DNA of 64,000 nucleotides from Verrucomicrobiota bacterium (GTDB lineage Bacteria; Verrucomicrobiota; Verrucomicrobiia; Opitutales; Cerasicoccaceae), in contig JBCBUK010000015.1 in NCBI GenBank assembly GCA_039818205.1, positions 1-64,000 of the forward strand, written 5' to 3'. A model generated the notes under the pieces. The model saw only the letters and a program-made list of their open reading frames with translations, had not been told where the DNA came from and did not search any database. Positions 5,421 through 49,329 of this stretch are shown piece after piece. Both the position numbers and the translations under genes were made by a program. Every line of letters begins with the position of its first letter. Within the stretch, counting starts at the first letter, position 1.

Positions 5421-5439
5421 TGTGTAATCAAGGTTGGAA

Positions 5440-22138: not shown

Positions 22139-22622
22139 GGTCGAGAGTTCGACGGAACGAAATACGCTAACGTGTCACTGCTGAATCTATGCCAATTGGG
22201 GTTGAGGTCGACTTAAAGTTCCTGGGCGGCAGGACGTATTGGTTGGTGTTTCAAAACGGTGCAACGAGCCGTTTCATCTGGGTGAGACTCAGAATGGCAA
22301 GCTAGGAAATAACGAACCTAGCGTGTGCTTGGTGGCGCTGAGCAAACCTTGAGTGCGCGATTCTATGCTCCTCAATTCGCAATATAAGGTTTGAAGGTCG
22401 GAGGAATGATCCGCATGATTGAAATTATTATTTTAATCCGAGCACTTGGATCCGGAGCCGTCTCAAATCAAACCTATCCCTCGCGCCCTTGATCCAAATA
22501 GTGCGGCCAGATCTTCTGTTAGTTAGAGCGAGATCTGATCCTAATTTGTTGCCCTAAAGGTGCCTCCAAGGCGTAAGCAAGTGAGCCGTTCATTTGCTGA
22601 AAATTATGCCTCGGCTTTCCCA

Positions 22623-25600
22623 ATGAAAGTTCTTCACCAGATTTCTTTCCTGCTTTTTTCGATGTGCCCGTTGCTCGGTGCATTGGTGGATGAGTTCACG
22701 GATACATTCTCCCTCGGGGGCGCTGGTGGAATCGGTGCCTATACGCCGTTCGGAGGAAATTCGAGCCAGACTCAGACATTTACGATTCGAGGAGATTCTC
22801 CGGACGGTAGTTTTGTTGACGGATCAGATGATGGCTTTGCGCACCTGCATCGAACGCTTCTCGATCGGGCAACGGTTGGGATGGTCAGAGACCTTGGAGT
22901 GATTTCTAGCGGTGATGTTGGAGCAACGGTTCTAGTTGATGCTGGGTTCCGTCATCGTTCCGGCATGACGAGCGTTTGGTCTTTGGTTTTGGGAGGCGCC
23001 GCTTTGGTTGGTGAGGGTCAGTTAAGTGTCTCCTCGTTTAGTAGTGGGAGTATCGCGTCCAACAGTGATGTTCTGCTTTCTGCGATTGATCCATCCGGCG
23101 ATTCCGGGCGATTGGGTGCCGGACCGCTAGCATACACGATCCAATTGGGTGATGTCGGGAAGCGTCTTGAGCTCCAGTTCTCCGTGTACGATAGCACAAA
23201 CAGTGGCTCGGGTGAAGGAACACGAGATCTCAGCGTCGATTTTATTAGCTATCAAAAAGTTGCTGCTAAATACGGGAATTACCGAAACTCGCGTATCGGT
23301 TTAATCAATGGTCAGACGCCAGATTCGTTGCTGTTTTTCCCATGGAGAGAGCTGCTCTATGACTTCGATACCGATCAACCACTCAACGGCGTCCAGGCAA
23401 ATGCTTCCGCAATCGCCACTAGTGCGAGCTACTACATGACTGCGCCCCAATCGCTGCGGTGGCGTGCCTCGAATGGCTCCACACTGATATTGGATGCCGG
23501 CATGTCCTTACCTTACGAATGGCGGGTAACCTATTTTCTGTCGATGGGATTGTTCCAAGAGGATAGTCCAGGCGGAAACGATAAGCGGGCTTTTCGGATT
23601 GAGTTGATTTCGAGCGACGGCGTCGTGAGGCAAACGAGGCAGATGTACCTGCACAAAAGTGGATGGAACATCCTCTGCTCTGAACTCGACGACTTGCGGC
23701 AGTATCCGATAGACCGCATTCGAGTCACCCAGGTTAGCGGAAGTGGCGGCGATTTCTATGTGGACAATGCAATGGTTTTTGCGTCCCAGAATACCCGGAG
23801 CGCGGTTGCGACGAGTGGCATTGAGAAGGAAACTCTTTGGATTGAGAATTCAAGTAGCTACCCAACGACACCGCTGACCCCGGAGGAACGCGACGCTTTC
23901 TATACGATTGCTGAGCGCGTAATCCCGCTGCCCAGTAAGGTGTCCAGTATTTCGTCTTCTCGAATGAATGAGTTTCGTGCCCTTCATGCCTACTTCAAAG
24001 TCGAGAGGAACGGCGAATTTGCTAACGGCGCTAACCCACTCTACTACTATCGGGGGTTAGACAAGTTGGACGGTGAGTCTGATCCTACTTTGCAGTATCG
24101 GATGAACAGTGAACTGTGCGACGAGTTAGAGCACATTGGGAAAGCTTGGTATCAAACCCAAGATGTTAATCAGAAAGAAGAACTTGCTGAGATGGTCACC
24201 GACTTGGTCCGGCTTTCAGTAACCTATGGTGGAATACCCAATCCCTGGTACAATGGACGAGGCTTCGCCGAAGGCGTATTCTACTCCAAGGATTTGCTGG
24301 AGAGTGAAGGGTTGTTGGAAAAGGTAACCGAGCAGATCTTCCTTCAGTACAACGTCGATCGAATTCTATACAACGAGCACAGCTGGGAGAATCCGGTTGC
24401 GCAGAGCGATCGAAGTCCAGAGTTCTTCTGGCAGGCAACGGCTGATGACCTAAACACCGGGAGCAAAAGCACGCTGCTTAGCATCTTAGTTGCGCCGGAT
24501 TCGCCAGAGAAAGCGCGAGATCTGCAACGCCTGAGAAGCTGGCTTGAAAACGTGGCATTGGCATTTTCTCCCAATACGCTCGGAACGTTAAAGCCCGATG
24601 GATCTTGGTTTCATCATTGGGGAAATCGCTTCGACAATTATGGCTGGGTAGCAGCCTGGCGAGGTTCGTGCGAATGGGTTTGGTGGTTGAGCCACACCCC
24701 GTTCGGAGTTGGGTCTGAGGCTAAGGAGCGGATGCACTTTATGGCCGATATTCATTTCGAGATCATGAACAAGGATGGCTACGTGGGCCCGCAGGATGCG
24801 ATGAGTTATATTCCATCTTCTGGTTTTATGAATCTTGCTCTAGCGGGTTCGCCCGATGGTTCAGAAGCTATCGATCCGGTTATGGCTTCTTACTGGTTGG
24901 CTTATCCAAACGATTCGACCTACCGTCGGAATGCGGACCTTGTTTCGAGCCTGAGTTCAAGCAGTATCGTGCCAGCTGATAAGGTAGACAGTAATTCGAC
25001 TCTTAGCTACGACATTTCGAACGTTCATCGGCGAGGAGACTGGCAGGTTTATACACGCGGAGCGTCAAATAGTCTTTATCATACGCAATACGAGCGGGAT
25101 GGGTTTCTGTTCTACAATATCGGTGGACTATCTTTGGTGAAAGAAGGAGAGGCGACAGGTATGCAGCAGAGCTACGGGTCCTCGCTTCTGCTTCGACATC
25201 TGTCGGATCTGCCGAGCCTGACCCCCGGTTACAACACTAGTCGGGCTCCCGGAGTTACCTCGATCGATTCGAGTTATAATAACCTGCGTCAAATATACTA
25301 TCAGCGGGGCTCATCGGATTTCGTTGGAGGTCTATCAACATTCGATGGAATGGGAATCTTTGTTCAAGAGTTCGACGCTCGAGATAACAGCACCTACTCC
25401 AATCGAATTGCACGCGGACTAAGGTTTAAAAAGTCTTACTTCTACTTCGGAGACGACATCGTCATGCTCGCCAGCAATATCTCAAATAATGGGAGTACAA
25501 CCGCTGTAGAAACTGGCTTGCTGCAGGAGCCAACGAGTGCCGGCAATCGATTCTTGTTGAGCAATGGTACCAATACTGGAGGTGGTAACGTAAACGTCAG

Positions 25601-27272
25601 TCATTCCTCAGCGGACATTCCGTGGATATTCAACGAGACGCAGGGAGTTGGAGTTTACCTGACTCCGGGGCAGAGCTTTCGGCTGTTTAAGGGGCCTCAG
25701 ACTTTTGGCCCATCAACGGGCGATATCGTGAGCGCCTATCTGCACCATAGCGATCAAAGCGATGGATGGTACGAATGCGTTTTACGGCTCAATGCGAACG
25801 AATCGAGCATGGTCGACTTAGCATCGAGCATGGATAGTGGTTCTCCGGAGTTCTCGATCTTGCGTAGAGATTCGAAGGCACATGTTGTGCGTAGCGAGGA
25901 ATATGAGTCGGTCGGTTATGCAATCTTTGATTCATCAAACTTGATCTTTGCGGACGGCGTATTGGCGAGTGTTGATCAACCCTGTGTTGTAATGGTGCAG
26001 GAGCACGATAGCGGCTTGGTCAATCTAACGGTATCATGCCCCGACAAGAAGATGCAGAAAACAGCAAGCAATCCGCTTGGGTGGAGCGATCCGGTTGAGT
26101 TACAGCTGGTGTTAAATGGTGCGTTTGGCTTGGAGGGTGCATTGTCTGGAAATCCGAATGTCGCGGTCGATTACGTTGGAACCAAGATGCTCTTGAGAGT
26201 GACGGTGCAAGACGGATTGCCTCAAGCGGTTAGTTTGCGACGGGTAGAATCGATTGGGGCATCGCAGGTGTTCGCATCTTGGAACTTCGACGATGAAGGA
26301 GCGAATGGAACGGATTCTGGACGATCTCAAACCAACTGGTCAGACTCAGCACCGACAACGGCTGAACCCGCGTGGATTCTTACGTCAACAGGAGCGGGAT
26401 CTGGCTCCGGAATTAGCGTGGATCCAATGTCGGGAGAGTTGATTCTGAGTGGTGTTGGCGGTGACGTTACACAGGCGATTTTGCCCTTTGGTCGAGATGC
26501 CTTGGAAGGGCGAGTTTCCGTTGAGCTCGGTGTTGACTCTGGAAACACCTGGAGTGGGGCAAAGTTCAACCTGGTTCAAGTGGATTCGCAGCGCATTGAT
26601 ACCCTGGTGGAAGTTCGGGTTCAGCGGAATGGAAGCAACACTAATAACCTGATATCGACGGCAACGGTCGGCGCTGCCATCAATGGTCAGTGGGAGGACT
26701 CCTTTAATGCGCTCGAGATTCAGTGGGATGTCGATGGTGCCGACATTGTTCTCTCGGGATTGGAAAGCGGCGACGTCACGATTGAACGAGGTGGGTTCCT
26801 GGCGCCATTGATTCCCAATGCATTGCTCATCGAGGTGGATGCGGCGGATGACCGATTGCGACGGCTAAAGTTGAGATCCCTGGACGTTGCGTTTCCCATG
26901 ATGAGTTATCTCGAGTGGGTAGGGGCCTTCGGTATTGAAGGATTCGAAGATACCTTGCTGGTCGCGGACTTTGATGGCGATGGATATGATAACCGTTCTG
27001 AGTATATCGCTATGACCGACCCGGCTTCAGGGGGGCAGTTCCCTTCCGTCCTCCAAGTTGCCTCGACCACCGTTGACGATGGATTAGAGATCTCAATTAG
27101 TTGGATTCCACTGCAAGGTCGTGTTTACGATGTCTATGGTTCGACTGATCTACGGGACGGCTTTTCACGCATCGAAGCCGGTTTGAGGTATCCAATTGAT
27201 AGGTATACGTGGAAGGTTCCCGACGCAGCTAACCATGGATTTATTCGTTTAGAAATGCGCTTGGAGGAGTAG
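22623..27272 (+). CDS. Secreted PL8-type (chondroitinase ABC-like) polysaccharide lyase with accessory domains and C-terminal module
   Basis: GTLKPDGSWFHH, FKKSYFYFGDDIVMLASNISN, ILRRDSKAHVV, VDQPCVVMV, LTVSCPD; signal peptide from ATG 22623. Confidence 0.8.
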   Translation: MKVLHQISFLLFSMCPLLGALVDEFTDTFSLGGAGGIGAYTPFGGNSSQTQTFTIRGDSPDGSFVDGSDDGFAHLHRTLLDRATVGMVRDLGVISSGDVGATVLVDAGFRHRSGMTSVWSLVLGGAALVGEGQLSVSSFSSGSIASNSDVLLSAIDPSGDSGRLGAGPLAYTIQLGDVGKRLELQFSVYDSTNSGSGEGTRDLSVDFISYQKVAAKYGNYRNSRIGLINGQTPDSLLFFPWRELLYDFDTDQPLNGVQANASAIATSASYYMTAPQSLRWRASNGSTLILDAGMSLPYEWRVTYFLSMGLFQEDSPGGNDKRAFRIELISSDGVVRQTRQMYLHKSGWNILCSELDDLRQYPIDRIRVTQVSGSGGDFYVDNAMVFASQNTRSAVATSGIEKETLWIENSSSYPTTPLTPEERDAFYTIAERVIPLPSKVSSISSSRMNEFRALHAYFKVERNGEFANGANPLYYYRGLDKLDGESDPTLQYRMNSELCDELEHIGKAWYQTQDVNQKEELAEMVTDLVRLSVTYGGIPNPWYNGRGFAEGVFYSKDLLESEGLLEKVTEQIFLQYNVDRILYNEHSWENPVAQSDRSPEFFWQATADDLNTGSKSTLLSILVAPDSPEKARDLQRLRSWLENVALAFSPNTLGTLKPDGSWFHHWGNRFDNYGWVAAWRGSCEWVWWLSHTPFGVGSEAKERMHFMADIHFEIMNKDGYVGPQDAMSYIPSSGFMNLALAGSPDGSEAIDPVMASYWLAYPNDSTYRRNADLVSSLSSSSIVPADKVDSNSTLSYDISNVHRRGDWQVYTRGASNSLYHTQYERDGFLFYNIGGLSLVKEGEATGMQQSYGSSLLLRHLSDLPSLTPGYNTSRAPGVTSIDSSYNNLRQIYYQRGSSDFVGGLSTFDGMGIFVQEFDARDNSTYSNRIARGLRFKKSYFYFGDDIVMLASNISNNGSTTAVETGLLQEPTSAGNRFLLSNGTNTGGGNVNVSHSSADIPWIFNETQGVGVYLTPGQSFRLFKGPQTFGPSTGDIVSAYLHHSDQSDGWYECVLRLNANESSMVDLASSMDSGSPEFSILRRDSKAHVVRSEEYESVGYAIFDSSNLIFADGVLASVDQPCVVMVQEHDSGLVNLTVSCPDKKMQKTASNPLGWSDPVELQLVLNGAFGLEGALSGNPNVAVDYVGTKMLLRVTVQDGLPQAVSLRRVESIGASQVFASWNFDDEGANGTDSGRSQTNWSDSAPTTAEPAWILTSTGAGSGSGISVDPMSGELILSGVGGDVTQAILPFGRDALEGRVSVELGVDSGNTWSGAKFNLVQVDSQRIDTLVEVRVQRNGSNTNNLISTATVGAAINGQWEDSFNALEIQWDVDGADIVLSGLESGDVTIERGGFLAPLIPNALLIEVDAADDRLRRLKLRSLDVAFPMMSYLEWVGAFGIEGFEDTLLVADFDGDGYDNRSEYIAMTDPASGGQFPSVLQVASTTVDDGLEISISWIPLQGRVYDVYGSTDLRDGFSRIEAGLRYPIDRYTWKVPDAANHGFIRLEMRLEE

Positions 27273-27589
27273 CCAGCGATTGATTGAATTCGATGCTTTT
27301 CCCGTTGATGTCTAAATTGTCGTTTGTGCGATCTAACGCCAGGTGGGCGCAGTATCAGACTTCCCATTAGAGCTAGAGCTGATCCAGTTTGAGCGTGGTG
27401 CTGGTGGTTTCACGTTTTGCTACGCGCAGCGGCGCTCGGTCTGGGTCTTCTACGGCGCACCGCAGGATGATGCTTTAAATACTTGGGTATTTCGAGGAAC
27501 TAGGTATTGATATCGCTCCATTTTGCTCTTCATTGATGGAGCAATTTTACGGTGCCACTTACCCGAACGAACCATCTAAGTCTAAAGTA

Positions 27590-28447
27590 ATGAAAATCTC
27601 ACTGTTTGTCATCCCGCTTCTCGCCTTGAACGCAACCCTATCGAGTTTTGCCGACCAGGCGCCTCGCCTGGAACTGGTCTGGGAGACCGAACCTATTTTC
27701 TCCTACCCGGAAAGTGTCGTCTACGACCCTGCGCGATCAGTATTGTATGTGAGCAATATCGGTGAAACTCCCAAAGATAATTCCGCCAACGGTGATGGCT
27801 TTGTGTCGATTCTCAGCTTGAGCGGAACTCCTATTGTTAAGAACTACATTCGGGGATTGAATGACCCGAAGGGTATGGACCTGGATGGGGATACGCTTTG
27901 GGTCAATGATCGGGATGCGATTGTTGAATGGGACCTTGCGGAAGATCAGTTGGAGAAGCGGCATGAGCTGGAGAACATTGTGTTCCTCAATGATATCAGT
28001 GTTGGCCCTGAAGGAGAGATTTTTTCCAATGACGCCGACGGTCATAAAGTTCTGAAGTTAGAGGGTGATCAGTGGAATGTCTTCTGGAGTGATCCCGATG
28101 AAGGGCGGCCCAACGGTATTCGCGTTGAGAAAGATCGGATCATGTTAGCGATGAACTGGTCGCACCAGCTAATTGCCATTGATAAAGGCACGATGGAAAT
28201 TTCGCTCCTTCTGGATGGAATTGGTGCTGGCGATGGCATCGAGCCAGTTGGCAATGGGGGTTACCTCATCACCGATTACCTTGGGCGAATTATTTACCTT
28301 TCGCCTGAAGGTGTCGGTAGTGTCCTCATCGATTCGAGAGAAGATAAATTAACCGCGGATCTTGAATATATTCAGGATCAAAACCTAGTCCTGATTCCAA
28401 GACATAAGAATAATTCGGTGGCGGCATATCGCCTGATCTGGGATTAG
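27590..28447 (+). CDS. Secreted SMP-30/gluconolactonase-like beta-propeller
   Basis: PESVVYD...LYVSNI, GLNDPKGM, FLNDI, PNGI, GDGIE, ADLEY; signal peptide. Confidence 0.75.
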   Translation: MKISLFVIPLLALNATLSSFADQAPRLELVWETEPIFSYPESVVYDPARSVLYVSNIGETPKDNSANGDGFVSILSLSGTPIVKNYIRGLNDPKGMDLDGDTLWVNDRDAIVEWDLAEDQLEKRHELENIVFLNDISVGPEGEIFSNDADGHKVLKLEGDQWNVFWSDPDEGRPNGIRVEKDRIMLAMNWSHQLIAIDKGTMEISLLLDGIGAGDGIEPVGNGGYLITDYLGRIIYLSPEGVGSVLIDSREDKLTADLEYIQDQNLVLIPRHKNNSVAAYRLIWD

Positions 28448-28688
28448 GTCTTTCGACCAAGTTGGAGTCTTAAGCCCTCCGGCTTTGGGGCGGGTTGCCT
28501 GCGCTCTCAACGCGTTTTGTTTGTCGATGAAGGGCGAGCGAATTGTCCTGTATTTCGAGCCGCTAATCCGGACCGCGATCATCGCAATATTTTGAACCAC
28601 GTGGGGGAGCAACAGTCAGAGTATGAGCACCATTAGATTTAGTCTCTGTGACCTGGGCGCTCTCGGATCTCGTTGAAACGAGCTGCGT

Positions 28689-29888
28689 TCAATTGTGGCT
28701 CAGCATCTTGTAGACTTCGGAACCGGCCGCTAAGAAGGCGCCGATTCCATAAACCTCAGTCTTGTCAGGAAACGAGTCTCCGGGTGCAGCTCCGACGGGT
28801 TGGACATGCCCAAGCATGCCTTCGGGCGTTACGCATTCTTCAAGGGCGGACCATGCTTTGAGTATGATTGGCTCGTAGGTGGCTCGATCGAGGATCCCGT
28901 TGTTCACGCCCCACGCCAACCCATATACGAAGAATGACGTCCCGCTGGTCTCCTTTATCGGATAGCCTTGTTCGCCGCCAAGTAAACCCATTGACCACGT
29001 GCCATCTGCTCTTTGCAATGATACAAGACTGGCTGCCATTTGTTTGAATACTTCGACATAGAACGGGCGAAATTCCCAGTCGTCGGGCATATCGGGGATC
29101 ATCAGGGCTAGGCCAGCGAACACCCAGCCATTGCCGCGGGACCAAAATAGCTTCCGTCCGTTCTGTTCACGCTTATTGAAAAAGCTAGTATCCCGCCAGA
29201 ATAGTTTCTCTTCGTCGTCCCAGAGCAGGTCGTAGGTTGCCCTGTACTCCTGATGCATGAAATCGAGGTATTTTTGCTCTCCCGTTATTTTGGCTAGCCG
29301 CGTCCATACCGGTGGCGCCATAAACAGTGCATCACACCAACCCCACCGATCAAGCCAATCGGTATTGGGGTTCTTATAGCCGCTGTATTTCATGGATCCC
29401 ATTTTGGGCTCGGCGAGGATTGCGTCGAAACGCTTGCGGGTCGGCTCAATCATTTCTGGGGCACCGATGTCCTCGTAGAGATTCAAATAGAACTGACCAA
29501 CAGTATGGTCGTCGGCGTGATACTTGCGCTTGTGTAGTTTCCAATGATTCCGTTTGCCAATCATCATCAGCCAATCAGCGTACTTTGGGTCATCGCCCGC
29601 CGTACTCCATTCATACATGCCGACATAGAGAGCGCCTTTGTGCCATCCGAGTTCGGGCCAACGCCATGGGACCCAGCCATTCTCTTCGTTCTGTTTTTTC
29701 TGGTGAGTACTCAACGCACGGTATTCTAACTCCTTGTCGAAATTCGCTATCTGCCAATCAGCAACACGATTGGTGAGCGCCTTTACTGATTCAGCGCTCG
29801 GGCGATTGGATTCTGATGTTGCTGAGACATTCATTGTCAGAACGACGAGAACGTTCAGTAGTGTTAGTATTCGAGTCGAGTGCCTCAT
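28689..29888 (-). CDS. GH105 (GH88/105 group) unsaturated glycuronyl hydrolase
   Basis: HADDHTVGQ, WGWCDALFMAPP, FWSRGNGW, ETSGTSFFVYG, YGIGAFLAAG. Confidence 0.9.
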   Translation of the reverse strand: MRHSTRILTLLNVLVVLTMNVSATSESNRPSAESVKALTNRVADWQIANFDKELEYRALSTHQKKQNEENGWVPWRWPELGWHKGALYVGMYEWSTAGDDPKYADWLMMIGKRNHWKLHKRKYHADDHTVGQFYLNLYEDIGAPEMIEPTRKRFDAILAEPKMGSMKYSGYKNPNTDWLDRWGWCDALFMAPPVWTRLAKITGEQKYLDFMHQEYRATYDLLWDDEEKLFWRDTSFFNKREQNGRKLFWSRGNGWVFAGLALMIPDMPDDWEFRPFYVEVFKQMAASLVSLQRADGTWSMGLLGGEQGYPIKETSGTSFFVYGLAWGVNNGILDRATYEPIILKAWSALEECVTPEGMLGHVQPVGAAPGDSFPDKTEVYGIGAFLAAGSEVYKMLSHN

Positions 29889-30615: not shown

Positions 30616-33600
30616 TTGAAAACTGTCATGAATGTCTTTTTTCGCATTTTTAGCGCGCCCAGATTGGGACTTTCTTTAGTTTTTAGCGTACTGGGATTTG
30701 CTGCTCCTTCTTTGGCGCACATTTGTGGGCCCAGCGAAATTTTCCTGATTCCAGGCCAAACATTTGTGTATTCAATCGTCGCAGATGTTTCGGAAAAGGA
30801 GAAGTCGTCTTACAAGCTTGCAATGATTGACAACCCAGCAATCGTCTCGGTTTCACCGGAGCAGCAGTTTTCTCGGTTTGTACGAGGTGTATTTAAAATT
30901 AAGGCGCTTGAGGTTGGCCAGACGAATGTCGCGATGACTTGGACGTATGATCCGAACAATGCCGGAGCAACGTGTATTGTCTCAGTGAATGTTGTTGCTA
31001 CTGAGGAAGAAGCAGCATTGGGAAGGGCGGTTTCAACGCTTTTTTCGTTTTCTGGTTCCGCCGCGGACCCAATCAGTACCTACACTGGCGACTTCTACAT
31101 GCATTCCGCGCCTGACCTCGCTCTTGGTGGTCCGATGCCGCTGTTCTTTCAGCGCTACTATAATTCTGGCCTTAGCCGGCAAGGATTCGTTACCCAACAA
31201 ATGGGACGCAACTGGACACATAATTACGACCTCTACCTTTACCCTTTTGGAGATGAGGTCTTCATCGTTCACCGGGATGGCAAAGTCCTCCAATTTCAGT
31301 TGAATGGCGAAAGTTGGGATCTGGTTTCGCCGCTAAGCCAGCCCTATCAATTGCTGGAAGACCAGGGTGAATACGTGCTCATGGATCCCACGGACCAACG
31401 TCGCTATTTCTTTAATTCGGACGGAAATCTCACGGCAATCAAAGATCGCAACGACAACACCCACACGATGACCGTTGCCAATGAGAATCTGATCGAGATT
31501 TCCGATGGTTTGGGGCGACGATTGAGCCTGACCTATGGCGGCCTCAACAAGGTTGCTTCTGTGTCGGACGGCACCCGGACAGTCACCTTCACAAATTTCT
31601 TTTTGGATTTGGAGGAGGTTCGCGACGCCCGAGGTCACACCACCGACTACCATTATCCTAGCTCTGACGGAAGGCTTGGCTCGATCACTCGCCCAGAGGG
31701 CAACACCCCGCTGAGCCGAACCTTTACGGGTGACCAGGCGACACGTGAAACTGATGCCGACAACAATCAGACGTTAATTGACTATAACGGCCTCCAAACC
31801 GAAATTATTGATCCATTGTCGGACATACGGAAGCACATTCACAGCGATAACGGTGAGTTGCTGCAATCGATTGATCCACTCAACCGTGCGACAACGCTGG
31901 GATACAACGCAGATACCCAGCGCAACTCGATTACTGACCGCGAAGGCAATGAGACCTCCTGGTCGATTCATGAGGCTTCGGGGCGTATCGAGAGCTACAC
32001 CGACGCCGAAGGCCAAACGACCGAGTATACATATACCGCTCAACAGCAACACGGCTTTACCTTCTACGACATCACTGAGATCCACTACTCCGATAATACG
32101 ATGACCACCATTACTGTGGATGCGAGTGGCAATCCGTTGACGGTCACTAATCCGGATAACGAGACGTGGGCCTTCACCTACAATAGTCGCGGCCAGGTGA
32201 TTACCGAAACCAACCCGACGAATGGCGTCACGACCTACGGTTATGATGCCAATGGCGATCTGGAAACTATCAGAAATCATTTCAACGACCTGACGTCTTA
32301 TGACTACGACGGCTTTTCACGGGTCACTCGTGTTGACTATCCAGGCGGTGACCATCGTGAGATGACCTACGACGACAACGACAACCTTCTCACGGTTACG
32401 GATGAGAGAAATCAGACTTGGACTTACACCTACGATGACAACAACAACCTCGTCACTGCAACCGACCCTCGAGGTGAGACCTTGACCAATGTTTATGACG
32501 ACATGGATCGCATTTCGCGTATCGTAGACCGCGAGGCCAATCAAATCGATTTCACTTATGATGAGCGCGGGCGCATGAAGACCCTGGTGAATGGTGCGGG
32601 TGAAACGACAACCTATGGCTACGATGTCAATGACCGCCAGGTTACTACCGCTGACAATGGAAATCGCACGGTTACCACCGAACGTAACTCAGAGGGAGAA
32701 GTCACCTCGGTAACCGACCCATTGAACAATGTCTGGTCAATCGAAACCGATGCCGTCGGCCGTGTGGTAAAGCAAACGAATCCACGGGGTGGAGAAAGCA
32801 CCTTTGAGTATGATGGCCGTGGTCGCTTGTTGAGATCCTACAACGAAGTCGGAACGTCGGTTGAGCGTACCTATGATTCAGTTGGACGTATCTCGTCTAT
32901 GACGGTGGATACTGGTTCTCAGGTAACCTATGGCCGGAATGCGTTGGGTATCATCAATGAAATTACAGACCCGAATCAAGGTGTTTGGACACGCGGATTT
33001 GATCCTTCTGGGCGTATGACCAGCGAAACGGATCCTCTTGGTCGGTCTGCCAATTTTACCTACGATAACCGAAGCAGAATAGAGGAAATGGCAACGGAAC
33101 TAGGCAATCTGACTTTCTCTTACGATGCCGCCGGGAACCTGACCAGCCGCGCTTACTCTGATGGTAAGTTAATCACATACGGCTATGATGACAATAGCCG
33201 GTTGGTTTCCGCAACCAACTTGGCATTGGGCTACGACGGCGAACGGAACATCATCGATTGCAACGGAATGACCATGACCTACGATGGCGCCAGCCGGTTG
33301 GAGACGATTCAATACGCACCGGGAAAGATCGTTACCTATACCTATGATACCCGGGGGTTGATTTCTACCGTTACCGACTGGGTGTCGGGAACCACTGAGT
33401 TGGACTACGATGATGCCGGTAATCTCGTCTCGATTACTCGGCCTAACCAACTTGAAACACGACTTGATTATGATGACGTCGGCGAGCTTTCTAGCAGCGA
33501 GGTCGTTGATCTGGGTGAAAATGGTGCACCGACTATTTCTTCGATACTGCTAACGCGCGATTTGACTGGCCGCATTACAGGTGTTGCTCGTGATTTGCCG

Positions 33601-35082
33601 TCCTCGGGTTCTCCGGCTAACGAAGAGTCGCTTTATACTCCGGACGCAGGGCATCAACTGGCTGGGGGTAGCTACGCTTACGATGCAATGGGTCGTCGAA
33701 TAGCCGACTCGAATCGAAACTATACCTGGGACTTGGCATCGATGCTAACCGCTTATACTGCGTCTGGTGGGCTGGTGAATTCCACCTATGATGCCTATGG
33801 AATACGGACGCAGCGCACCCAAGGCAGCACAACCCGTGGCTATGTGGTGAATTATGCCCTTAGCTTTCCCTCGATCTGTACCATGACTGATGGTTCGTCA
33901 GATCTTACCTACTACGTCTACCTCCCAAGCGGCACGCTGCTCTACTCGATTGCCGCGTCGAATAACTCCCGCCGCTTTTATCACTTTGATGAAGTTGGTA
34001 ATACCATCTATCTTTCAGATGACTCCGGCGCGATAACGGATACCTACAAACTGACTCCTTTTGGCCGACTAATTTCTCAGACGGGAGCAACCGAAAACCC
34101 CTTCATCTACGGTGGTCTATTCGGTGTGGTTTCCGAAGGAGCGGGGCTGTATTACATGAGGGCGCGTTACTACGATGCCGAATCGGCCCGCTTCATCTCG
34201 AAGGATCCCGTTAAGGGACTCATGCCTAGTAGCGTGAACCCTTACCAGTTCGCGTTTAATAACCCCAACCTATACGCCGATCCAAGCGGTCGAGAGGTCA
34301 CCTTGGGAGGCTACGGAAGATTCGGGCTCGCCTACAACGAGTCGCCTAGTGTTCGCGGTAGTGAGCAGGAGCATAGAATCGAACAGCGTTTTCGATTAAC
34401 CATCACCGGAACGACTGAGTCCGATGGTGGGGTGCAATTCGAAGGTAGAATTCGCTTGCGAGAGGATAATGACCAGCGCCACGATAATTCGGGATTTGGT
34501 GCTGCAGGATTTGCTGTTAGTTCCGGCGGATTCCGGCTGGATGTCGGCAACGTAGCAGACGTTCTTGATCAGGGAGATACGGTTTACTACTACGGTTACG
34601 ATGTCGGACTCACGAGCTTCTCCGACTACAACTCAAATTACGATGGATTTGGTTCGATAGGCGGCTTTGGAACCGCTGCCCGGAGTGACCCGACTCCCAG
34701 TAAGGAAAAATATTTCTATTTGGCGGGTTTGCAGGGCTTATCAGGATTGGGCGCGGGCTCGGATGTCGGTGGCCCAGTGGGAGGGTTTGGCAGTGGTTCC
34801 CCCGATGTAAGCGCTATTAAGTTACGCTACACGGCAGGCGACTTCACGATCGGCGTTGGTGGATCGCCAACCCAAATCGATCCCGGAACCTATACCGGAG
34901 CAGTTCCGACGGGGGGAAGCTTTTGGGGTTCCGACTCTGGACCTACCTTTGGTGTTGGTTACGAATCTAACTTTTCCGATTTCAGTCACGACCTAGGTGG
35001 CGGTATCCTCATTCGAGGAAGCATCGGCCAAAGTCCGAATAGTGCCACTATCTCGGATCTGGGATTGAGTTTTAGGCCTTAA
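30616..35082 (+). CDS. Sec-exported Rhs/YD-repeat protein with porin-like C-terminal cargo
   Basis: Signal peptide; ADPISTYTGD (DUF6531-like start); dozens of YD repeats; Rhs core GLYYMRARYYD...NPYQFAFNNPNLYADPSG; 263-aa C-terminal region. Confidence 0.93.
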   Translation: MKTVMNVFFRIFSAPRLGLSLVFSVLGFAAPSLAHICGPSEIFLIPGQTFVYSIVADVSEKEKSSYKLAMIDNPAIVSVSPEQQFSRFVRGVFKIKALEVGQTNVAMTWTYDPNNAGATCIVSVNVVATEEEAALGRAVSTLFSFSGSAADPISTYTGDFYMHSAPDLALGGPMPLFFQRYYNSGLSRQGFVTQQMGRNWTHNYDLYLYPFGDEVFIVHRDGKVLQFQLNGESWDLVSPLSQPYQLLEDQGEYVLMDPTDQRRYFFNSDGNLTAIKDRNDNTHTMTVANENLIEISDGLGRRLSLTYGGLNKVASVSDGTRTVTFTNFFLDLEEVRDARGHTTDYHYPSSDGRLGSITRPEGNTPLSRTFTGDQATRETDADNNQTLIDYNGLQTEIIDPLSDIRKHIHSDNGELLQSIDPLNRATTLGYNADTQRNSITDREGNETSWSIHEASGRIESYTDAEGQTTEYTYTAQQQHGFTFYDITEIHYSDNTMTTITVDASGNPLTVTNPDNETWAFTYNSRGQVITETNPTNGVTTYGYDANGDLETIRNHFNDLTSYDYDGFSRVTRVDYPGGDHREMTYDDNDNLLTVTDERNQTWTYTYDDNNNLVTATDPRGETLTNVYDDMDRISRIVDREANQIDFTYDERGRMKTLVNGAGETTTYGYDVNDRQVTTADNGNRTVTTERNSEGEVTSVTDPLNNVWSIETDAVGRVVKQTNPRGGESTFEYDGRGRLLRSYNEVGTSVERTYDSVGRISSMTVDTGSQVTYGRNALGIINEITDPNQGVWTRGFDPSGRMTSETDPLGRSANFTYDNRSRIEEMATELGNLTFSYDAAGNLTSRAYSDGKLITYGYDDNSRLVSATNLALGYDGERNIIDCNGMTMTYDGASRLETIQYAPGKIVTYTYDTRGLISTVTDWVSGTTELDYDDAGNLVSITRPNQLETRLDYDDVGELSSSEVVDLGENGAPTISSILLTRDLTGRITGVARDLPSSGSPANEESLYTPDAGHQLAGGSYAYDAMGRRIADSNRNYTWDLASMLTAYTASGGLVNSTYDAYGIRTQRTQGSTTRGYVVNYALSFPSICTMTDGSSDLTYYVYLPSGTLLYSIAASNNSRRFYHFDEVGNTIYLSDDSGAITDTYKLTPFGRLISQTGATENPFIYGGLFGVVSEGAGLYYMRARYYDAESARFISKDPVKGLMPSSVNPYQFAFNNPNLYADPSGREVTLGGYGRFGLAYNESPSVRGSEQEHRIEQRFRLTITGTTESDGGVQFEGRIRLREDNDQRHDNSGFGAAGFAVSSGGFRLDVGNVADVLDQGDTVYYYGYDVGLTSFSDYNSNYDGFGSIGGFGTAARSDPTPSKEKYFYLAGLQGLSGLGAGSDVGGPVGGFGSGSPDVSAIKLRYTAGDFTIGVGGSPTQIDPGTYTGAVPTGGSFWGSDSGPTFGVGYESNFSDFSHDLGGGILIRGSIGQSPNSATISDLGLSFRP
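34291..35082 (+). other. Rhs C-terminal domain resembling Rhodobacteraceae-type outer-membrane porin
   Basis: EVTLGGYGRFGLAYNE..IEQRFRLTITGTTESDGGVQFEGRIRL..GFRLDVGNV..IKLRYTAGDFTIGVG..GGGILIRGSIGQ..TISDLGLSFRP; amphipathic beta-strands. Confidence 0.8.
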
Positions 35083-35100
35083 GCAATTCTTAAAGAGCAG

Positions 35101-35673
35101 ATGAAAATGAGAAATTTTATTTTTGGCTTTTGGTTCGTGTGCATCTTGCCGGTTGCCGTTTTCGCTCAATCGGAGCAGGTTGTCTATACATACGACAATA
35201 GCGGTCGGTTGACCGGCGCGTATACCGATAACGGCACAAGCGTAACCTACGTCTATGATGCCGCCGGAAATCTATTACGACGCAAGACGACGGTGATTGT
35301 CGACAGCGATGGCGACTTCATGGATGATACCTTTGAGATGTCCAATTTTGGTAGCCTCTCCCGTGATGGCACGGCCGATTTCGATTTCGACGGACAATCT
35401 GACCTCGCGGAATTCTATGCGGGCACCGACCCAGATGATTCGACATCCGTTTTGAACGTTACCTCGTCCAGTGATGACGTTTCTGGTTTCACCATCACTT
35501 GGGCAGCGGTCAGCGGAAAGCGCTACCGGGTTCAATACAAGGATCATCTCAATTCGCCCGCATGGTTTGACTTGGCTGGTGATGTGACCGCCTCAGGTGC
35601 CAGTGCATCGAAGGTCGATACGCGCGCCCTGACGGATGGAAGGCGTTTCTATCGTATCATAGTGATGCAATGA
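35101..35673 (+). CDS. Small secreted YD-repeat protein with C-terminal module
   Basis: Signal peptide; YTYDNSGRLT...YVYDAAGNLL; DSDGDFMDD.FE...GTDP...YRVQYKDHL...W...RRFYRIIV; starts 18 nt after the Rhs stop. Confidence 0.85.
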   Translation: MKMRNFIFGFWFVCILPVAVFAQSEQVVYTYDNSGRLTGAYTDNGTSVTYVYDAAGNLLRRKTTVIVDSDGDFMDDTFEMSNFGSLSRDGTADFDFDGQSDLAEFYAGTDPDDSTSVLNVTSSSDDVSGFTITWAAVSGKRYRVQYKDHLNSPAWFDLAGDVTASGASASKVDTRALTDGRRFYRIIVMQ

Positions 35674-35886
35674 TGGGTGAGGTGAGGATGTTCAGTTAGC
35701 GCGGGTTCTGCTCGGTTTCCGACGATAGCGGTTGGATTGTTACGCCGCGCTCGGATAGGGAGGCGAATTCGTGGAATATGGGGCTTCGGCCTTAAGTTTG
35801 ACAGGGGTTTGCCGCTGTAGTATGAATACTCGATTAATCTTCTGCCTAAACTTATCGACCGCTTTAATCTATTTTTCCGATTTGGT

Positions 35887-38800
35887 ATGGCCGTGCTCTT
35901 TGGGGCGGCGGTCTTTGTCGGTGGCAGGGCGCACGCGCAACTCATTTATACGGAGTCCTTTCGGTTCGAAAGCGCCCCTGGATGGGAGTTTCGACAAGAT
36001 AGTAATGGGACTGATCCTCCGGCCAGATTGACGGCCAATGCGGTTCCCAACGCAGCAGATCCAGAGTCGGGCACCCCGCAGATCGATGTGAATGGCAACG
36101 GGTGGTTACGCCTGGCGACCACGACCGGAAATCAGGCCAACGCAGTTGCGCTTGATACGGCTATCCCAGCGACTGACAACACGATACGAATTTCGTTTGA
36201 TTACTCCTTTTGGAAACCTGACACGGCCCCCGCAGATGGTATCACCGTGTTTTTATGGGATGCGGGTCAGGCATTCGATCCTGGCGCCTTCGGGGGATCG
36301 CTGGGTTATGCGAACCGGACAGGCGTCGATGGCCTTTCCGGGGCATACGTGGGTGTTGGGCTCGACGTATATGGAAACTTTTCGAACCCGACAGAAGACA
36401 GAAACGGTGGCGTGGGGTTTCGGCCCAACGAGGTAGCGATCCGCGGGGCCGGTAGCGGCCAAACGGGATATGACTATATTGAGGGCACTGGAGATGGCAC
36501 GAATCCATCGCTGACCTCCGTCTTCGGTTCGGGTTTCAGCATGGATTTTATTAATTCCCCAAGTCGGCCCGATCAGGATGCCGATGATTATCGCGGTTTC
36601 CAGCTAGAGTTGGACGAGAACGATGTGCTGACGATTTGGTTGCAGGACGGGTTTAGCGGCACGCTGACCCAGGTTCTGCAGACGACTCTAACGGATCCAC
36701 GACCGGACCAGTTGCGAGTCGGTTTTGCTGGTTCAACGGGTGGTTCGGTCGAAGTATACGAGATTAGGAACCTGGAGATTGAAACAACCGGAGGCACGAA
36801 CGCTTTCTACTGGGACAACGAGGATGGCGACCAGCAATGGGGCACCGGAACGAACTGGGATCAGGATGTTGTTCCAACCGATCACAGCTTCGTTGTCTTC
36901 TCGGATCTGTTTCCGGACACGATGACCGACCAGTTGGTTGAAATTAACGGCGGGGACAAAACAATAAGCACCGCGACCTTCACCGGGACATCGAGCTACA
37001 CGCTGACTCCAGAAAGCGCACAAACGCTGATTTTTGATACGGACGGCAATGGCAAGAGCTACCTTAACGTTTTGAATAGCCCAAACGGCAACGCCGACCA
37101 CACGATCAATGCGGATATCCAAGCGAGTGGGAATGATCTGGATATTCAGAACTTGGTGGATCAAACGCTGACGCTTAACGGAGATATTGACGGGGCTGGC
37201 AACGATTTGGGTTTTGAGTCCGCTGGTTTGATTGTGGCCAATGGTGCGATTTCCGACAGTTCGGGGACGACCAATGTGACGGTTACCGGGAATGGCGAAA
37301 CGCAGTTCGCTGGCAGTAACACCTATTCTGGAACCACTACGGTGGGCAGTGCCGGAGGGGACTCGACCACGCTTACGATCAGCAACGCGATTGCGCTTGG
37401 AACGACCGGAGCGGCGACCACCGTTTTGGATGGATCGACGCTCGCCTTGGAAAACAACATTACCTTTGCGGCAGAAACGGTTAATATCACCGGTTCCGGG
37501 GTCGACGGTGTGGGTGCACTCTTCAACAGCTCCGGCACGAACACTTGGGATGGAAACATCAACTTAGCAGGTGATGCCACAATCGGAGCGGCTTCGGGAA
37601 CCTCTTTGACACTAGATACGGGTACGTTGGATGGCGTTGGCAACGAGATCACCTTTTTGCCGGAATCAGGAGCAACGATTACGGTGGATCAGACGATAAC
37701 CGATTCATCTGGAACCACGAACGTAGTCTTCGATGGTGCCGGAATGACCGAGATCGGCTTTTTCCAGAACAACACCTACGAAGGCACAACGACCATCCGA
37801 TCCGGAACCGTTTTGTCCGGAAGTAGTGTGGGCGCTTTTGGTGAAGAAGCATTCGGCGCGTCGAGCTCGAATATTGAACTTGGCGATGGTGGAACGGATG
37901 CCACCGACAACATCACGCTTAGTTTCGATACGAGTTTCTTCAACCACATTGTTGATCGGCAGATTGACATCAACAACTCAGGTGCCACGACGACACTTGG
38001 CGTTGTTGGTAACAACACCCTCAATTATAATGCGGCGGTGAACCTCGCCAAAGATCTCACCGTGGACGCAGTGGATATCAGTGGGGCGATCGGAGCAGAG
38101 ATCATATTCGACAATGATGGCGCGTCGGGTGAACTGACAGGCACGGGTGATATTACGAAAACGGGTAACGGAATTATGACCTTACGCGGTGGTCACTCGA
38201 GGACGGGTGACCTGAACATCAACGGCGGGACCGTGAACGTCGAAGGTAATGGAGCCAGTGCACTTGACAATAGTGGCCGGGTCACGCTGGCCGATGTCGC
38301 CGGTGCCCAGCTGAACATCATTGATAGCGAGGTCATTGGTTCATTGGCAGGCGGTGGTGCGAGTGGAGGCAATGTTGCGATTGACGTGGGACAAACGTTA
38401 ACCGCCGGATTCGATGGTACCGACTCAACGTTTTCGGGAACCGTTTCTGGCTTTGGCAACCTCACCAAAGAGGGCGCCGGCAACTTGACCTTCGATGGAA
38501 CCAATACATTCACCGGTACGCTTTTGCTGGATGAAGGGACTGTAACTGCCGGTGCGGATAACACTTTTAATGATTCCATGGCGGTTGATTTCTCTGGCGG
38601 TACGCTCGCTATCGATGGGGTCACGGATACCGTCGGAGGCTTCAATCTTTCGTCCGACTCGACACTGGATTTTCTGGGAGCTGCTGGTGGAACCGTCACC
38701 TTTGGCGACTTGGACCGCACTGCGGGAGATCTTACGGTGGATAACTGGATTGGCAGTCTTAGTGGAGGTGGTGATACGCAGTTCCGATTTACGGGAACGG

Positions 38801-41660: not shown

Positions 41661-44600
41661 CTACTGATTTGATGAGCCATCATCGTCGGGTTCTCGATCT
41701 ATGGATCTTTGCTCAGGGTTCTCGATGCCGGTGTGCCGGAAAAGCAGGTGGAACGCTGCGAGTATTTGATCGAGCGTATCGTCTGTTCGTTCGTCTAGGG
41801 ACAGCTTGGGCAAAACAACACTCGGTCGGTCGGCGAGTTTGTCGCCGAGTTTTTCGATGGCATTGGCAAAGAGTTGCGCAGACTCGTTCCCTTGAGCAGT
41901 TGCTTCGGTACCTCGGGTGGCAGATTCGATCGTTCGGGCTAGTTGGTCAAGCACTTCGGACGTCTCTTTGGATAAAGCGATTTCAGGCTTCTCTGCCTGG
42001 TCTGTAGTGAGTATTTTTTTCAGCCCAGCCAATGATTCAGCATCGATTTGGAAGGGTTGTTGCGGGGATGGTTTCGGTATGAGCGTCGCGAGCTTAGTTA
42101 GTGTTTGCTCGTCGATCTGGAGAGGTCGAGCTTCGGGTCTAGGTGGTAGGATTGCCTTAAGTTTTTCGAGGGTCTCGTCGTCGAATGAAACCGGTTGGCG
42201 CATAGCGGCCAGGCGCTCACCCAGTCCTTCGAGGCCAGAGCTCAATGCCATATTGTTATCGGCTAGTTGATTGACGACTTTGTTAACTGGATCGCTCTCT
42301 GATCCACCGAGTATCTTGTTTTTGACGAAGCGTTTCTTGATCTCCTCCCAGCGCTCAATTTCCGGTTCAGTGATTTTACCTTCTAGTTGACGAAATTTTA
42401 ATAGGTTCGCCTCGGCACCATTGGTCAAGGTCTGTGCCTCGTTCTCGTAGTGGTCGTCGATAATGGATTCGACTTCGTCATCGGTCATTATCGGGAGGAG
42501 TTTCTCCGCAATTCGGTTCATGTTCCGGTAAGAGCCCTGCAGTTTAAACGGCGGCTCGGTTCGGAATTCATCGGCTTGTGCTGCGCTTTTGATATACTCG
42601 AGGTTTACGCGTAAAATCGTGTCTCGGACTCGCATCATTTTCTTCATGACACCGACCATTTCTTCGGTCTCTTCAGCGGTATAGCTGCCTTCAAAATCGA
42701 CACCTTCGCGAATGCCGGTCTTTGCTATTTTGATGACTGCATAGACATCTTTTCGGCTTCGATTGGACAGAGGGCGAAGCGCGGCATTTGACGTGAGGGC
42801 ATTCTCCAAATAGCTGTTCTCAAAGGCGCTGTGGTGCCCGCCAACAATGTCGCCAAGGTTGTAGGTATCGGCGCGGTTCGCCAGCATATCGGGGATTTGG
42901 AACTTGCCGCCGGTTTCAGTGTATGGGTTGCCAGCCATCACGACTGCAACTTTGCGACCTTTGAGATCATAAGTTCTCGCTTTTCCTTTGTAGACACCTT
43001 CGATTTTCCGTTGGGCATCGCATAAGGAAATGAACTTCTGGAGTAGCTCGGGATTGCAGTGCTGGATGTCGTCGAGGTAAATCATGACATTGTCACCCAT
43101 CTCGAAGGCTAGGTTTAGCTTCTCAACTTCTTCAGCAGCAGCTTTGTTGGGTGCCTCTTCTGGATCGATACTGGTAACATGGTGACCGATTGCGGGTCCG
43201 TTGATTTTGACGAAAGTTATCCCTAGGCGATTGGCAACATACTCCATGAGGGTCGTTTTACCATACCCGGGTGGGGAGATTAGGAGCAACATCCCCATGC
43301 GGTCGGTGCGGGCATCTTCGCCGGCGGTACCGATCTGTTTGGCGAGATTCTCACCAATGACTGGAAGATATACTTTATCGAGTAGTTGATTTCGAACAAA
43401 GGCACTCATCACTCGAGGCTTCATTTCCTCCAAACGGAGGTCGTCTTTTACTAGGTCGACCAGTTCGGCTTTGCGATCCAGGTAGCGTCGATAGGTTGGG
43501 ACGACCTCGCGCTCATGATGGCGAAGCTTCATGAGAAAGTGGTTGTAGTTGAGGTGCAGCTTCCGGTCTACAATGATTGGGTGATCGCCTCGGAGGCCGT
43601 CGATGTCGACTTCTATGGGCACTTCTACAATATGACGCTTTTCGATTGGTCCACGCAGCAAGTGAGCGGCCGCCTCGTCGATATATTCAAAGTCTCGTTC
43701 GGGTAAGTTCTGGGTCAACGCAAAGCCACGAAGCCAGTCACGTAGGATCTGAAACTCACCTGCGGCATCGTTCTTCATTGCAGCTCGGGCATCTTCAATC
43801 TTCTCGGTATAGCGTTTAGCGACAAGTTCGTGATGGAAGGCTTCCGCTAGCGCAGCGGACTCCCGAGAAATCGCGTAAGACTCTCGGTCGACTAATTCAA
43901 AGAAGAGATACTCGGCCGCGTCCTCCGAAAACTGGTGATCGCAAAGCATATGTTCGGAGCGAAAGGCCTCAATACGGAGTTTAAGTTCTCCGATATAGCC
44001 TTTTTGTGAATGGTGCTCGGGGAACAAGCGAAGCATCTCACCGAACGCGTCGACTTTCGCAGCCAAAAGGTCATCGCTATTCTGCTCAGTACTGAAGTGC
44101 TTCCAGTAGACTAATGCGAGCGCACGAGCGGTCGGATGATAGCGAAGAAGGCCGACCGATGTATGAATATCCAGCAGAGCATTAATGAGCTTTTGCCCGT
44201 CCTCGTCGTGGACACCTTTCATGTAGGCTTCGTCGTATCGAGGCGCCATGAATTTTTGTACCAACTCGATTTGAGCCGATTCTTCCATTGTCTGATAGTC
44301 TTCGGTTGAAATCCTGAGCTCGCTTGATATCTCTGGCAATGGAGTTTCGAAGTGCTTCAGTAGCTGATAGGCGAGAAACTCTCCCCGGTAAACACTGTCG
44401 GTTTCGCTGACAGTGCTCATTTCCCAAACGGGTTTTGTTTCAAGCAGAACTGAATCATCAATGCGCTCGAAGAACTGAGTCCCGGCTAGGTGGAAGTAAA
44501 TATCGTCTTCTCGCTGCACCGTCGTTAATGCCAGTTCTTGAGTGTTGACGCTGAATCGATAGCGCCCAAACCGTATGATATCTTCACCGTCGACGAAGAG

Positions 44601-47144: not shown

Positions 47145-47243
47145 AGTTGTTTTGGCTCCCAGCTGGTGGAGATTTACACAGACCTTCGATGACACCGCTG
47201 CCTTCTCGAGAAACGGTGTGTCGATGCCCAGTTGGTTCGGAAA

Positions 47244-49292: not shown

Positions 49293-49329
49293 GATTCGAT
49301 AGTTGTTTCAATATTGTTGTTTAAAAGTG

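Follow-up and report, generated by a model that had tools for sequence, protein, structure and literature searches.

The window analysed here is a 64,000-nt stretch of contig JBCBUK010000015.1 (positions 1 to 64,000) from the metagenome-assembled genome (MAG) GCA_039818205.1 of a Verrucomicrobiota bacterium. Its open reading frame (ORF) at 30616-35082 (+) is an Rhs/YD-repeat gene, and it is established that the product is an Rhs polymorphic-toxin-type protein, that its C-terminal cargo is derived from a porin family foreign to the phylum of the host and begins at the native mature N-terminus of that family, and that the fusion is genuine and in frame. An initial annotation of this DNA had proposed an Rhs protein here, with DPSG at 34279-34290, and a cargo related to an alphaproteobacterial-type porin. 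The ORF and its Pfam matches to RHS_repeat and DUF6531 bear out the former proposal, and the Porin_4 match and Rhodobacteraceae-type relatives described below the latter.

An Rhs protein with a porin-derived cargo

Read from the TTG at 30616, the gene has 1488 codons. An alternative start, the ATG at 30628, gives 1484 aa, which is also the length called on a Logan contig, and the NCBI call is 1438 aa; since the three disagree, the start of the gene is uncertain. The Pfam search found 11 stretches of RHS_repeat (PF05593, E 6.5e-70), which identify a YD/RHS shell, and PF25023 (TEN_YD-shell) is among the precomputed domains of P0122, a database entry counted for this shell. The N-terminal plug domain DUF6531 (PF20148, E 3.7e-16) occupies residues 151-227, and residues 1-151 matched no family. 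PAAR and VgrG domains were absent from the Pfam matches of the protein, which does not have the N-terminus of a type VI secretion system (T6SS) effector. Among homologues, core ends that are 50-57% identical are followed by unrelated tails, as is characteristic of a variable cargo. The parts of the gene are as follows:

30616..35082 (+): Rhs/YD-repeat gene (ORF translation, Pfam)
30628..30720 (+): signal-peptide-like N-terminus MNVFFRIFSAPRLGLSLVFSVLGFAAPSLAH, judged by eye without a predictor
31066..31296 (+): DUF6531 plug (Pfam; plug role taken from the Tse5 paper, PMC10684867)
31297..34203 (+): YD/RHS-repeat shell, with the 11 RHS_repeat stretches and PF25023
34204..34293 (+): aspartyl-protease plug motif, D(34204-34206)PVKG...D(34279-34281)PSG-R, predicted cut 34293/34294
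34294..34713 (+): well-conserved part of the cargo, comprising strands ~1-5, the constriction-loop (L3) region and the start of strand 6 (profile positions 21-161)
34768..34866 (+): second copy of the ...GGFG...IKLRYTAGDFT... segment (profile positions 140-173)
34867..34977 (+): 37 Gly/Ser/Pro-rich residues in place of ~103 profile positions (structure model: pLDDT < 50 for cargo residues 90-225)
34978..35079 (+): last porin hairpin, HDLGGGILIRGSIGQ...TISDLGLSFRP (profile positions 277-308)

The core end reads ...YYMRARYYDAESARFISKDPVKG...NPNLYADPSG and is followed by R-EVTLGGYGRFGLAYNE..., while the protein ends with ...ISDLGLSFRP. Both Asp residues of the aspartyl-protease motif are present, 25 residues apart compared with 23 in Tse5, and the first motif, DPVKG, is one residue longer than DPxG. 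In Tse5 the motif is DPXGX19DPXG with catalytic D1141 and D1164, and the chain is cut between L1168 and I1169 (PMC10684867). Because this cut sits four residues past the second catalytic Asp, we infer by analogy that the window's protein is cut between Arg (34291-34293) and Glu (34294-34296), which would leave exactly the native mature porin N-terminus.

The 263-aa tail (Arg plus 262 aa) has a single Pfam match at E <= 0.01, Porin_4 (PF13609; E 1.6e-9, 38.5 bits against a cut-off of 27). Among PDB entries it matches 9 distinct porin sequences of Rhodobacter blasticus (E 4.5e-13 to 1.9e-11; 1PRN at E 4.5e-13), and tail residue 2 (Glu) aligns with residue 1 of the R. blasticus porin chain; PDB titles that name an 'E1M mutant' confirm that Glu is residue 1 of the mature porin. 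A search of 5.8 billion proteins with the tail gave 198 proteins at E <= 0.001, and PF13609 is carried by 120 of 120 among the matches listed. The best match (E 1.5e-47), well past anything that chance could give, is 43% identical at 99% coverage, and those with names are porins of Tateyamaria, Epibacterium and Tritonibacter and of Paracoccaceae, Rhodobacteraceae or 'Pseudomonadota' MAGs. An AlphaFold2 (AF2) model of the cargo has a mean pLDDT of 52.9 and is confident for residues 1-89 and 226-263 only; Foldseek with this model ranked Rh. blastica porin entries best (E ~2e-9, TMq 0.47-0.55) and other general porins next. The sequence and structure searches thus gave the Gram-negative porin and Rhodobacteraceae matches that the initial annotation expected.

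We aligned 38 native porin homologues with the window's tail (alignment A1, 39 rows; identity between tail and natives 40-51%). All 38 natives have a signal peptide MKK...AAA followed by E-V-T-F-G-G, and the window's protein has DPSG-R in its place. The cargo itself therefore does not carry the signal for Sec export that goes with Porin_4 in A1.

A profile made from the 38 natives alone (310 positions) was matched to the tail and shows that the cargo is not an intact porin. Tail residues 2-141 correspond to profile positions 21-161 (168 bits) and are well conserved, and this N-terminal half retains all columns that are invariant in A1. Residues 160-192 correspond to positions 140-173 (17 bits) and give a second copy of positions ~140-161. 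Then follow the Gly/Ser/Pro-rich residues 193-229, where positions 174-276, roughly strands 7-14, remain unmatched, and residues 230-261 correspond to positions 277-308 (24 bits). The last residue of the cargo is Pro (...LGLSFRP) as opposed to Phe in 38 of 38 natives, so that the C-terminal aromatic residue is missing. The internal duplication of the GGFG...IKLRYTAGDFT segment is judged to be old; at the DNA level TRF found no repeat behind it, and a 10-nt micro-repeat alone was seen. Frameshifted porin remnants in the middle of the cargo were considered and rejected, as tblastn with 9 native porins puts all similarity in one frame. When three copies of the cargo were modelled as a trimer with A1, the median score was 0.36 against a mark of 0.42. 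The description of the cargo as a mature porin therefore holds for its start, since homology begins at mature residue 1, but not for the remainder, in which about a third of the barrel and the terminal Phe have been lost.

Host, distribution and genuineness of the fusion

The RpoB protein of the host genome is 80, 78 and 77% identical to those of MAGs titled Verrucomicrobiota, Opitutales and Verrucomicrobia, in agreement with the earlier view that the host is a verrucomicrobium. A search of 60 relatives, among them 5 from the same genus and 10 from the same family, gave 0 with the cargo tail. The porin profile A1 had 0 matches in 300 further genomes of the phylum, which together with the window's own cover 149 genera, and the own genome contains no second copy of the porin tail. 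Nesting of the domain among native verrucomicrobial proteins, which would have spoken against a foreign origin, was thus not seen in these relatives or genomes. A whole-genome search of the own genome with PF13609 gave 0 matches although hmmscan scored the tail at 38.5 bits; this negative was not relied on and A1 was used instead, and negatives of whole-genome family searches for short or divergent domains should be read with caution.

Capture by this organism as a single event, as first supposed, did not stand, since the same junction occurs in a Chthoniobacterales-like verrucomicrobium and in a gammaproteobacterial MAG. A junction query of the last 150 core and first 130 cargo residues was run against 1.84 billion representatives and gave 95,666 proteins at E <= 0.001. 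Among the best 150 of these, two reach into the porin part: P0125 (1488 aa, matching query positions 1-277), which is encoded by locus L028 in a MAG titled Gammaproteobacteria, and P0227, a 354-aa JGI metagenome fragment named 'RHS repeat-associated protein'. The match of P0236 extends to query position 253, yet its tail is not porin-like by eye. Faint echoes of a porin start were seen in P0127 (1397 aa), with '...DPDGREVT...' and a Gly-rich hydrophobic sequence, and in P0237 (1680 aa), with '...QRVEQSF...'; they were judged by eye only and may be due to chance. The degenerate DNA pattern D-x-x-G-x-[DE]-V-x-[LIVFM]-x-G-Y-G-R-F-G was scanned against one genome per species (185,579 species) and gave four stretches, the Rhs genes L027 and L028 and two others, L029 and L030, that encode unrelated ~600-aa proteins with a GYGRFGQ motif and were dismissed as chance matches. 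A relaxed pattern returned L027 and L028 again and no further Rhs locus. Counting the window's own, the pattern scan thus places the Rhs-porin junction in 3 of 185,579 species genomes.

The genome with L027 is Chthoniobacterales-like, with an RpoB 72-75% identical to its six best MAGs (Chthoniobacterales, Verrucomicrobiae or Spartobacteria), and RpoB identity to the window's genome is 66% for the genome of L027 and 47% for that of L028. The N-termini of both Rhs homologues resemble the signal-like N-terminus of the window's protein. In L027, L028 and P0227 the residue after D-x-x-G-x aligns with residue 1 of 1PRN (over cargo residues 1-52 in L028 at E 3.6e-7, and over 1-60 in L027 at E 1.3e-6), hhalign of these short modules against A1 gave probabilities of 95.6-95.8%, and Porin_4 scored 27.6 bits for L027, 30.2 for P0227 and 19.1, below the cut-off, for L028. 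The search for other Rhs-porin fusions was therefore successful as regards the junction, found in three further Rhs proteins, but porin likeness in these covers only ~50-64 residues (strands 1-3). Past this module the tails are unrelated to porins or to one another and match no known toxin family, except that the last 56 residues of L027 match the C-terminus of LamB maltoporin (PF02264 positions 323-378 of 378, E 2.3e-13). The L027 cargo (5016-5735) thus consists of 58 aa that match the Porin_4 N-terminus, ~125 unassigned residues and these 56 aa. In the genomes of L027 and L028 the Rhs cargo is the sole match to the porin profile, and in that of L027 also the sole LamB match.

The porin modules of the three proteins are 57-60% identical to each other, compared with 34-36% for the Rhs bodies, which suggests selection on the module or its exchange. 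As strands 1-3 alone are common to the three other Rhs proteins, the conserved unit appears to be the N-terminal module of the porin. These short modules carry ...TSRLRLQ..., similar to SSRLRI in the R. blasticus porin, while ...EQRFRLT... stands in the cargo of the window and in the 113 natives nearest to it, and the S-R-L-R type occurs in 0 of those 113. Given these different motif types, two separate captures are possible. The cargo frames are open over 225-262 codons in three genomes. Further searches added no members: long-protein searches with the tail and the profile, a mode that gives weak evidence, returned only the own protein and a 672-aa porin (P0124), single-protein searches for related loci found no relatives, the protein atlas gave no usable match, and two DNA-pattern scans of metagenome contigs gave 0 matches, which carries little weight as the metagenomic P0227 was also not recovered.

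A chimera of a verrucomicrobial Rhs gene and a roseobacter porin gene, made during assembly or binning, was considered because the genome is a MAG from a marine metagenome and the sole run with the sequence is probably its own source. The join is, however, in frame within a single reading frame and exact at the mature N-terminus, without signal-peptide codons or a remnant of them, and the best porin identity of only 43-51% means that there is no known donor sequence. Roseobacter genes are expected to have a high GC content at third codon positions (GC3). The cargo does not have such a value; its GC (0.536) equals the mean of the ORFs of the genome (0.536) and its GC3 is 0.511 compared with 0.60 +/- 0.05 in the genome, so neither exceeds the host values. 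The join lies mid-way in a contig of 102,979 nt, in a genome that is 99.97% complete with 0.37% contamination. A second assembly crosses the join at 34290 unbroken: a Logan contig of 10,444 nt from a marine metagenome run (k-mer depth 25) spans 32500-36500 with 0 differences; two further runs from that study yielded nothing for the stretch. The contig was made from the same reads, as the run is probably the MAG's own source, and tests the assembler only; the recurrence of the junction in two other, unrelated MAGs and one metagenome fragment gives firmer support. With the Logan contig, the host-like GC and this recurrence, an assembly artefact is unlikely, and we regard the chimera as having hardly any probability left.

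Downstream partner gene and other loci

Directly after the Rhs gene lies a small gene. Its product has an N-terminus that looks like a signal, two YD repeats, repeats rich in Asp and a C-terminal module. Equivalents stand beside Rhs genes in two genomes of the same genus (G005 and G002) and at L027 and L028:

35101..35673 (+): partner gene, 190 aa, 18 nt 3' of the Rhs gene (ORF, Pfam RHS_repeat E 1.2e-6)
L007, 4502-5212: partner equivalent
L016, 3227-3937: partner equivalent
L027, 5729-6994: partner equivalent
L028, reverse strand: partner equivalent, directly after the Rhs gene

Within the own genome, such a small secreted YD-repeat gene is found directly 3' of three of the five Rhs genes, on contigs C2, C16 and C15. 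Since it also stands beside Rhs genes with other cargos, it is a conserved partner of Sec-type Rhs proteins and not a cargo-specific immunity gene. Together the two genes look like a conserved unit in Verrucomicrobiota and the gammaproteobacterial MAG, and we know of no described role for its second member. The C-terminal module of the partner (window 35290-35670, residues ~65-188) recurs in many large ORFs, with 12 matches in the own genome and others in 22 of the 31 genomes covered (within the family, 14 of 15). A sorting or surface domain specific to the lineage is a possible reading of it.

Three other Rhs genes of the own genome are the following:

C2, 121366-127749
C16, 65451-73184 (-)
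C7, 86382-94703

Their cargos have a hydrophobic Gly/Ala-rich start right after DPxGE and no Pfam match and, judged by eye, are possibly helical and membrane-inserting; a look through ORFs of 70 aa or more showed no obvious immunity gene for them. The Rhs cargo on C9 is instead a pretoxin-HINT module. Since hydrophobic Gly-rich cargo starts go together with this partner gene in sister Rhs genes, it seems usual for Sec-type Rhs proteins to have membrane-directed cargos.

Just upstream of the Rhs gene (22560-29888) lies a polysaccharide-degradation cluster that encodes a PL8-type lyase of 1570 aa (Lyase_catalyt, Lyase_8, Lyase_8_C) and an unsaturated glucuronyl hydrolase of family GH88, which fits a glycan-degrading marine verrucomicrobium. 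The window also encodes, at 41661-50609 (-), a 1844-aa DUF3686/DUF7902/AAA ATPase, after which come two unassigned ORFs (682 and 229 aa) and an SPFH/Band 7 protein. These genes may form a defence-like or repair-like operon.

Candidate roles of the porin-derived cargo

The known cargos of polymorphic toxins, those of Rhs proteins included, are enzymes and, in rare cases, pore formers of helical type. We favour, with a confidence somewhat short of even, that the window's protein belongs to a membrane-directed, non-enzymatic cargo class of the polymorphic Rhs toxin family, acting in the manner of Tse5. A Sec-exported Rhs/YD-shell protein would encapsulate a remodelled fragment of a Rhodobacteraceae-type general porin, and its aspartyl protease would cut after DPSG-R and set free a chain of 262 aa whose N-terminus is that of the native porin. 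The shell would keep this aggregation-prone and membrane-insertion-competent chain unfolded and off the producer's own envelope. At the target envelope the released chain would insert as a beta-sheet or a reduced beta-barrel and harm membrane integrity or outer-membrane biogenesis; the initial annotation had thought of roseobacter membranes as a possible target. The working unit would be the N-terminal strands of the porin, with a remainder that varies as in other polymorphic toxins.

Storage in the shell and action on a target envelope are modelled on Tse5 (RhsP1) of Pseudomonas aeruginosa, whose C-terminal pore former is held unfolded in the shell, away from the producer's envelope, and provides a precedent for an Rhs protein that delivers a pore former (PMC9637101, PMC10684867). 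Both proteins have a DUF6531 plug, a YD shell and a DPxG...DPxG protease that cuts four residues past the second Asp (predicted for the window's protein), and both would hold a non-enzymatic, membrane-directed cargo disordered in the shell. Unlike the window's protein, with its Sec signal-like N-terminus and no immunity gene, Tse5 is a substrate of the T6SS that is paired with the immunity protein Tsi5, and its cargo of ~16 kDa is not described as porin-related in the part of the paper drawn on here (PMC10684867), whereas the cargo here has 262 aa and is homologous to porins. The uneven conservation of the cargo, the open frames in three genomes and a module that is better conserved than the core argue for a function.

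Several observations weigh against this reading. Since the barrel lacks about a third and its end residue is Pro and not Phe, at most ~12 strands can remain and a normal 16-strand trimeric porin is excluded on the strength of the alignment. The ~55 porin-like residues of the three other proteins are too little for a barrel, the full-length Rhs-porin form is known from one MAG only, pLDDT is below 50 for cargo residues 90-225, and no expression data were found. No cargo-specific immunity gene was found at the locus, where the partner is followed by a gene for a 1777-aa PATR/PEP-CTERM protein, and immunity is what a generic pore former would normally call for. The lack of such a gene, the third missing from the barrel and the lost Phe argue in particular against a simple model in which a working porin is released.

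The cargo could instead be the decaying relic of a captured porin C-terminus, with the other three proteins as later stages. This would explain the graded series from about two thirds of a porin in the window to ~55 aa in the others, the low-complexity Gly/Ser/Pro middle, the lost Phe, the low AF2 confidence and the rarity of the junction in the pattern scan. However, the kept N-terminal half and last hairpin around a replaced middle argue against uniform decay, every invariant A1 column has been preserved in that half, the frames have stayed open, the module exceeds the Rhs bodies in identity and the junction is exact in all four proteins, so that we consider a relic unlikely, if still to be reckoned with. 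Rather unlikely, too, is a second possibility, that the cargo poisons outer-membrane protein (OMP) assembly or uses it as a way into the target cell. As a 'Trojan' OMP precursor, the cargo of a Sec-type Rhs protein would imitate the unfolded ends of a foreign porin with N-terminal porin strands (joined in L027 by C-terminal LamB strands), and would be taken up by the OMP folding route of the target, that is by chaperones, the machinery that assembles beta-barrels (BAM) or, through strand pairing, nascent porins. It would jam outer-membrane biogenesis or give a leaky hybrid barrel, and its target would be OMP assembly itself. In favour of this are the N-terminal strand set, and not a whole barrel, common to four proteins, the L027 cargo that joins the termini of two OMP families, and the window's cargo, which looks like an unclosable barrel with an altered C-terminal residue. 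Stalled substrates that jam BAM harm E. coli (PMC8740687, PMC6529637). Specificity for bacteria with the cognate porin would make an immunity gene unnecessary in producers that lack the family, such as those studied here, and would explain both its absence and the Porin_4/LamB chimera. A difficulty is that a chain acting in the periplasm would first have to cross the outer membrane of the target. BAM recognises a C-terminal beta-signal, yet L028 and P0227 have no OMP-like C-terminus and the window's cargo has lost its Phe.

Type Va autotransporters consist of a signal peptide, a large passenger and a C-terminal beta-barrel of 12 strands, and the layout of the Rhs protein mimics theirs. The cargo could then be an anchor or translocator, a barrel in the producer's own outer membrane that displays or exports the shell, which cleavage would set free; the end of the L027 cargo, ...QMESWW, is that of a typical OMP. 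We think this improbable, as the window's barrel is incomplete and ends in Pro, neither L028 nor P0227 has a C-terminus like that of a barrel, the Pfam matches of the tail at E <= 0.01 include no autotransporter family, and in sister Rhs proteins that share the partner the hydrophobic Gly-rich starts of the cargos look helical rather than barrel-like by eye. In solved Rhs proteins, moreover, the chain after DPxG lies inside the shell (PMC10684867). An effector against eukaryotes such as grazers or algae, similar to Tc toxins, would fit the lack of an immunity gene, a Sec-dependent protein without PAAR or VgrG domains and a 262-aa cargo that resembles Tc cargos in size. Bacterial beta-barrel proteins and porins can be imported by or target mitochondria, and the porin fragment might be routed there. 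This rests purely on analogy, the barrel is incomplete and no TcA-like translocator or eukaryote-directed domain was seen, which makes such a role very improbable.

Compared with the general porins of Rhodobacteraceae, the cargo runs from residue 1 through strands ~1-6 and the L3 region and has the last hairpin, at 40-51% identity; unlike in those porins, an Rhs shell replaces the signal peptide, ~103 positions are gone, a segment of ~20-35 aa is duplicated and Phe has become Pro. The TcB-TcC cocoon of Tc toxins is Rhs-type and autoproteolytic and stores an unfolded C-terminal cargo. It thus resembles the window's protein, for which cleavage is predicted, in its cocoon and in a cargo of comparable size, but Tc cargos are enzymes injected via TcA into animal cells and no TcA/TcB-type parts were seen here. 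A conserved N-terminal sub-module followed by unrelated variable tails is shared with bipartite CdiA-CT and polymorphic-toxin C-termini (PMC3482391, PMC9424206), although known entry domains are not OMP fragments. Our literature search found no description of a porin or OMP barrel as the cargo of an Rhs protein or polymorphic toxin, and the initial annotation likewise knew of no Rhs effector of this class. The main text of the catalogue of Zhang et al. (2012) has as its sole pore-forming domain Tox-WTIP and mentions an OmpA peptidoglycan-binding domain at some polymorphic-toxin C-termini (PMC3482391). Tox-WTIP is likewise a non-catalytic, membrane-directed cargo found with RHS repeats, but it consists of two transmembrane helices, in contrast to the beta-strand, porin-derived cargo described here.

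An outer-membrane beta-barrel fragment as Rhs cargo would be a new effector class, and it would represent a clear cross-phylum domain capture, with an alphaproteobacterial-type porin in verrucomicrobial and gammaproteobacterial Rhs genes. The reuse of a signal-peptidase boundary as the predicted Rhs cleavage boundary and the terminal strands kept in the relatives point to OMP ends as what is recognised. Should porin assembly or BAM be where the cargo acts, it would be a naturally occurring protein that inhibits an antibiotic-target pathway; should it form a simple pore, this would mean that an Rhs cage can chaperone an unfolded beta-barrel.

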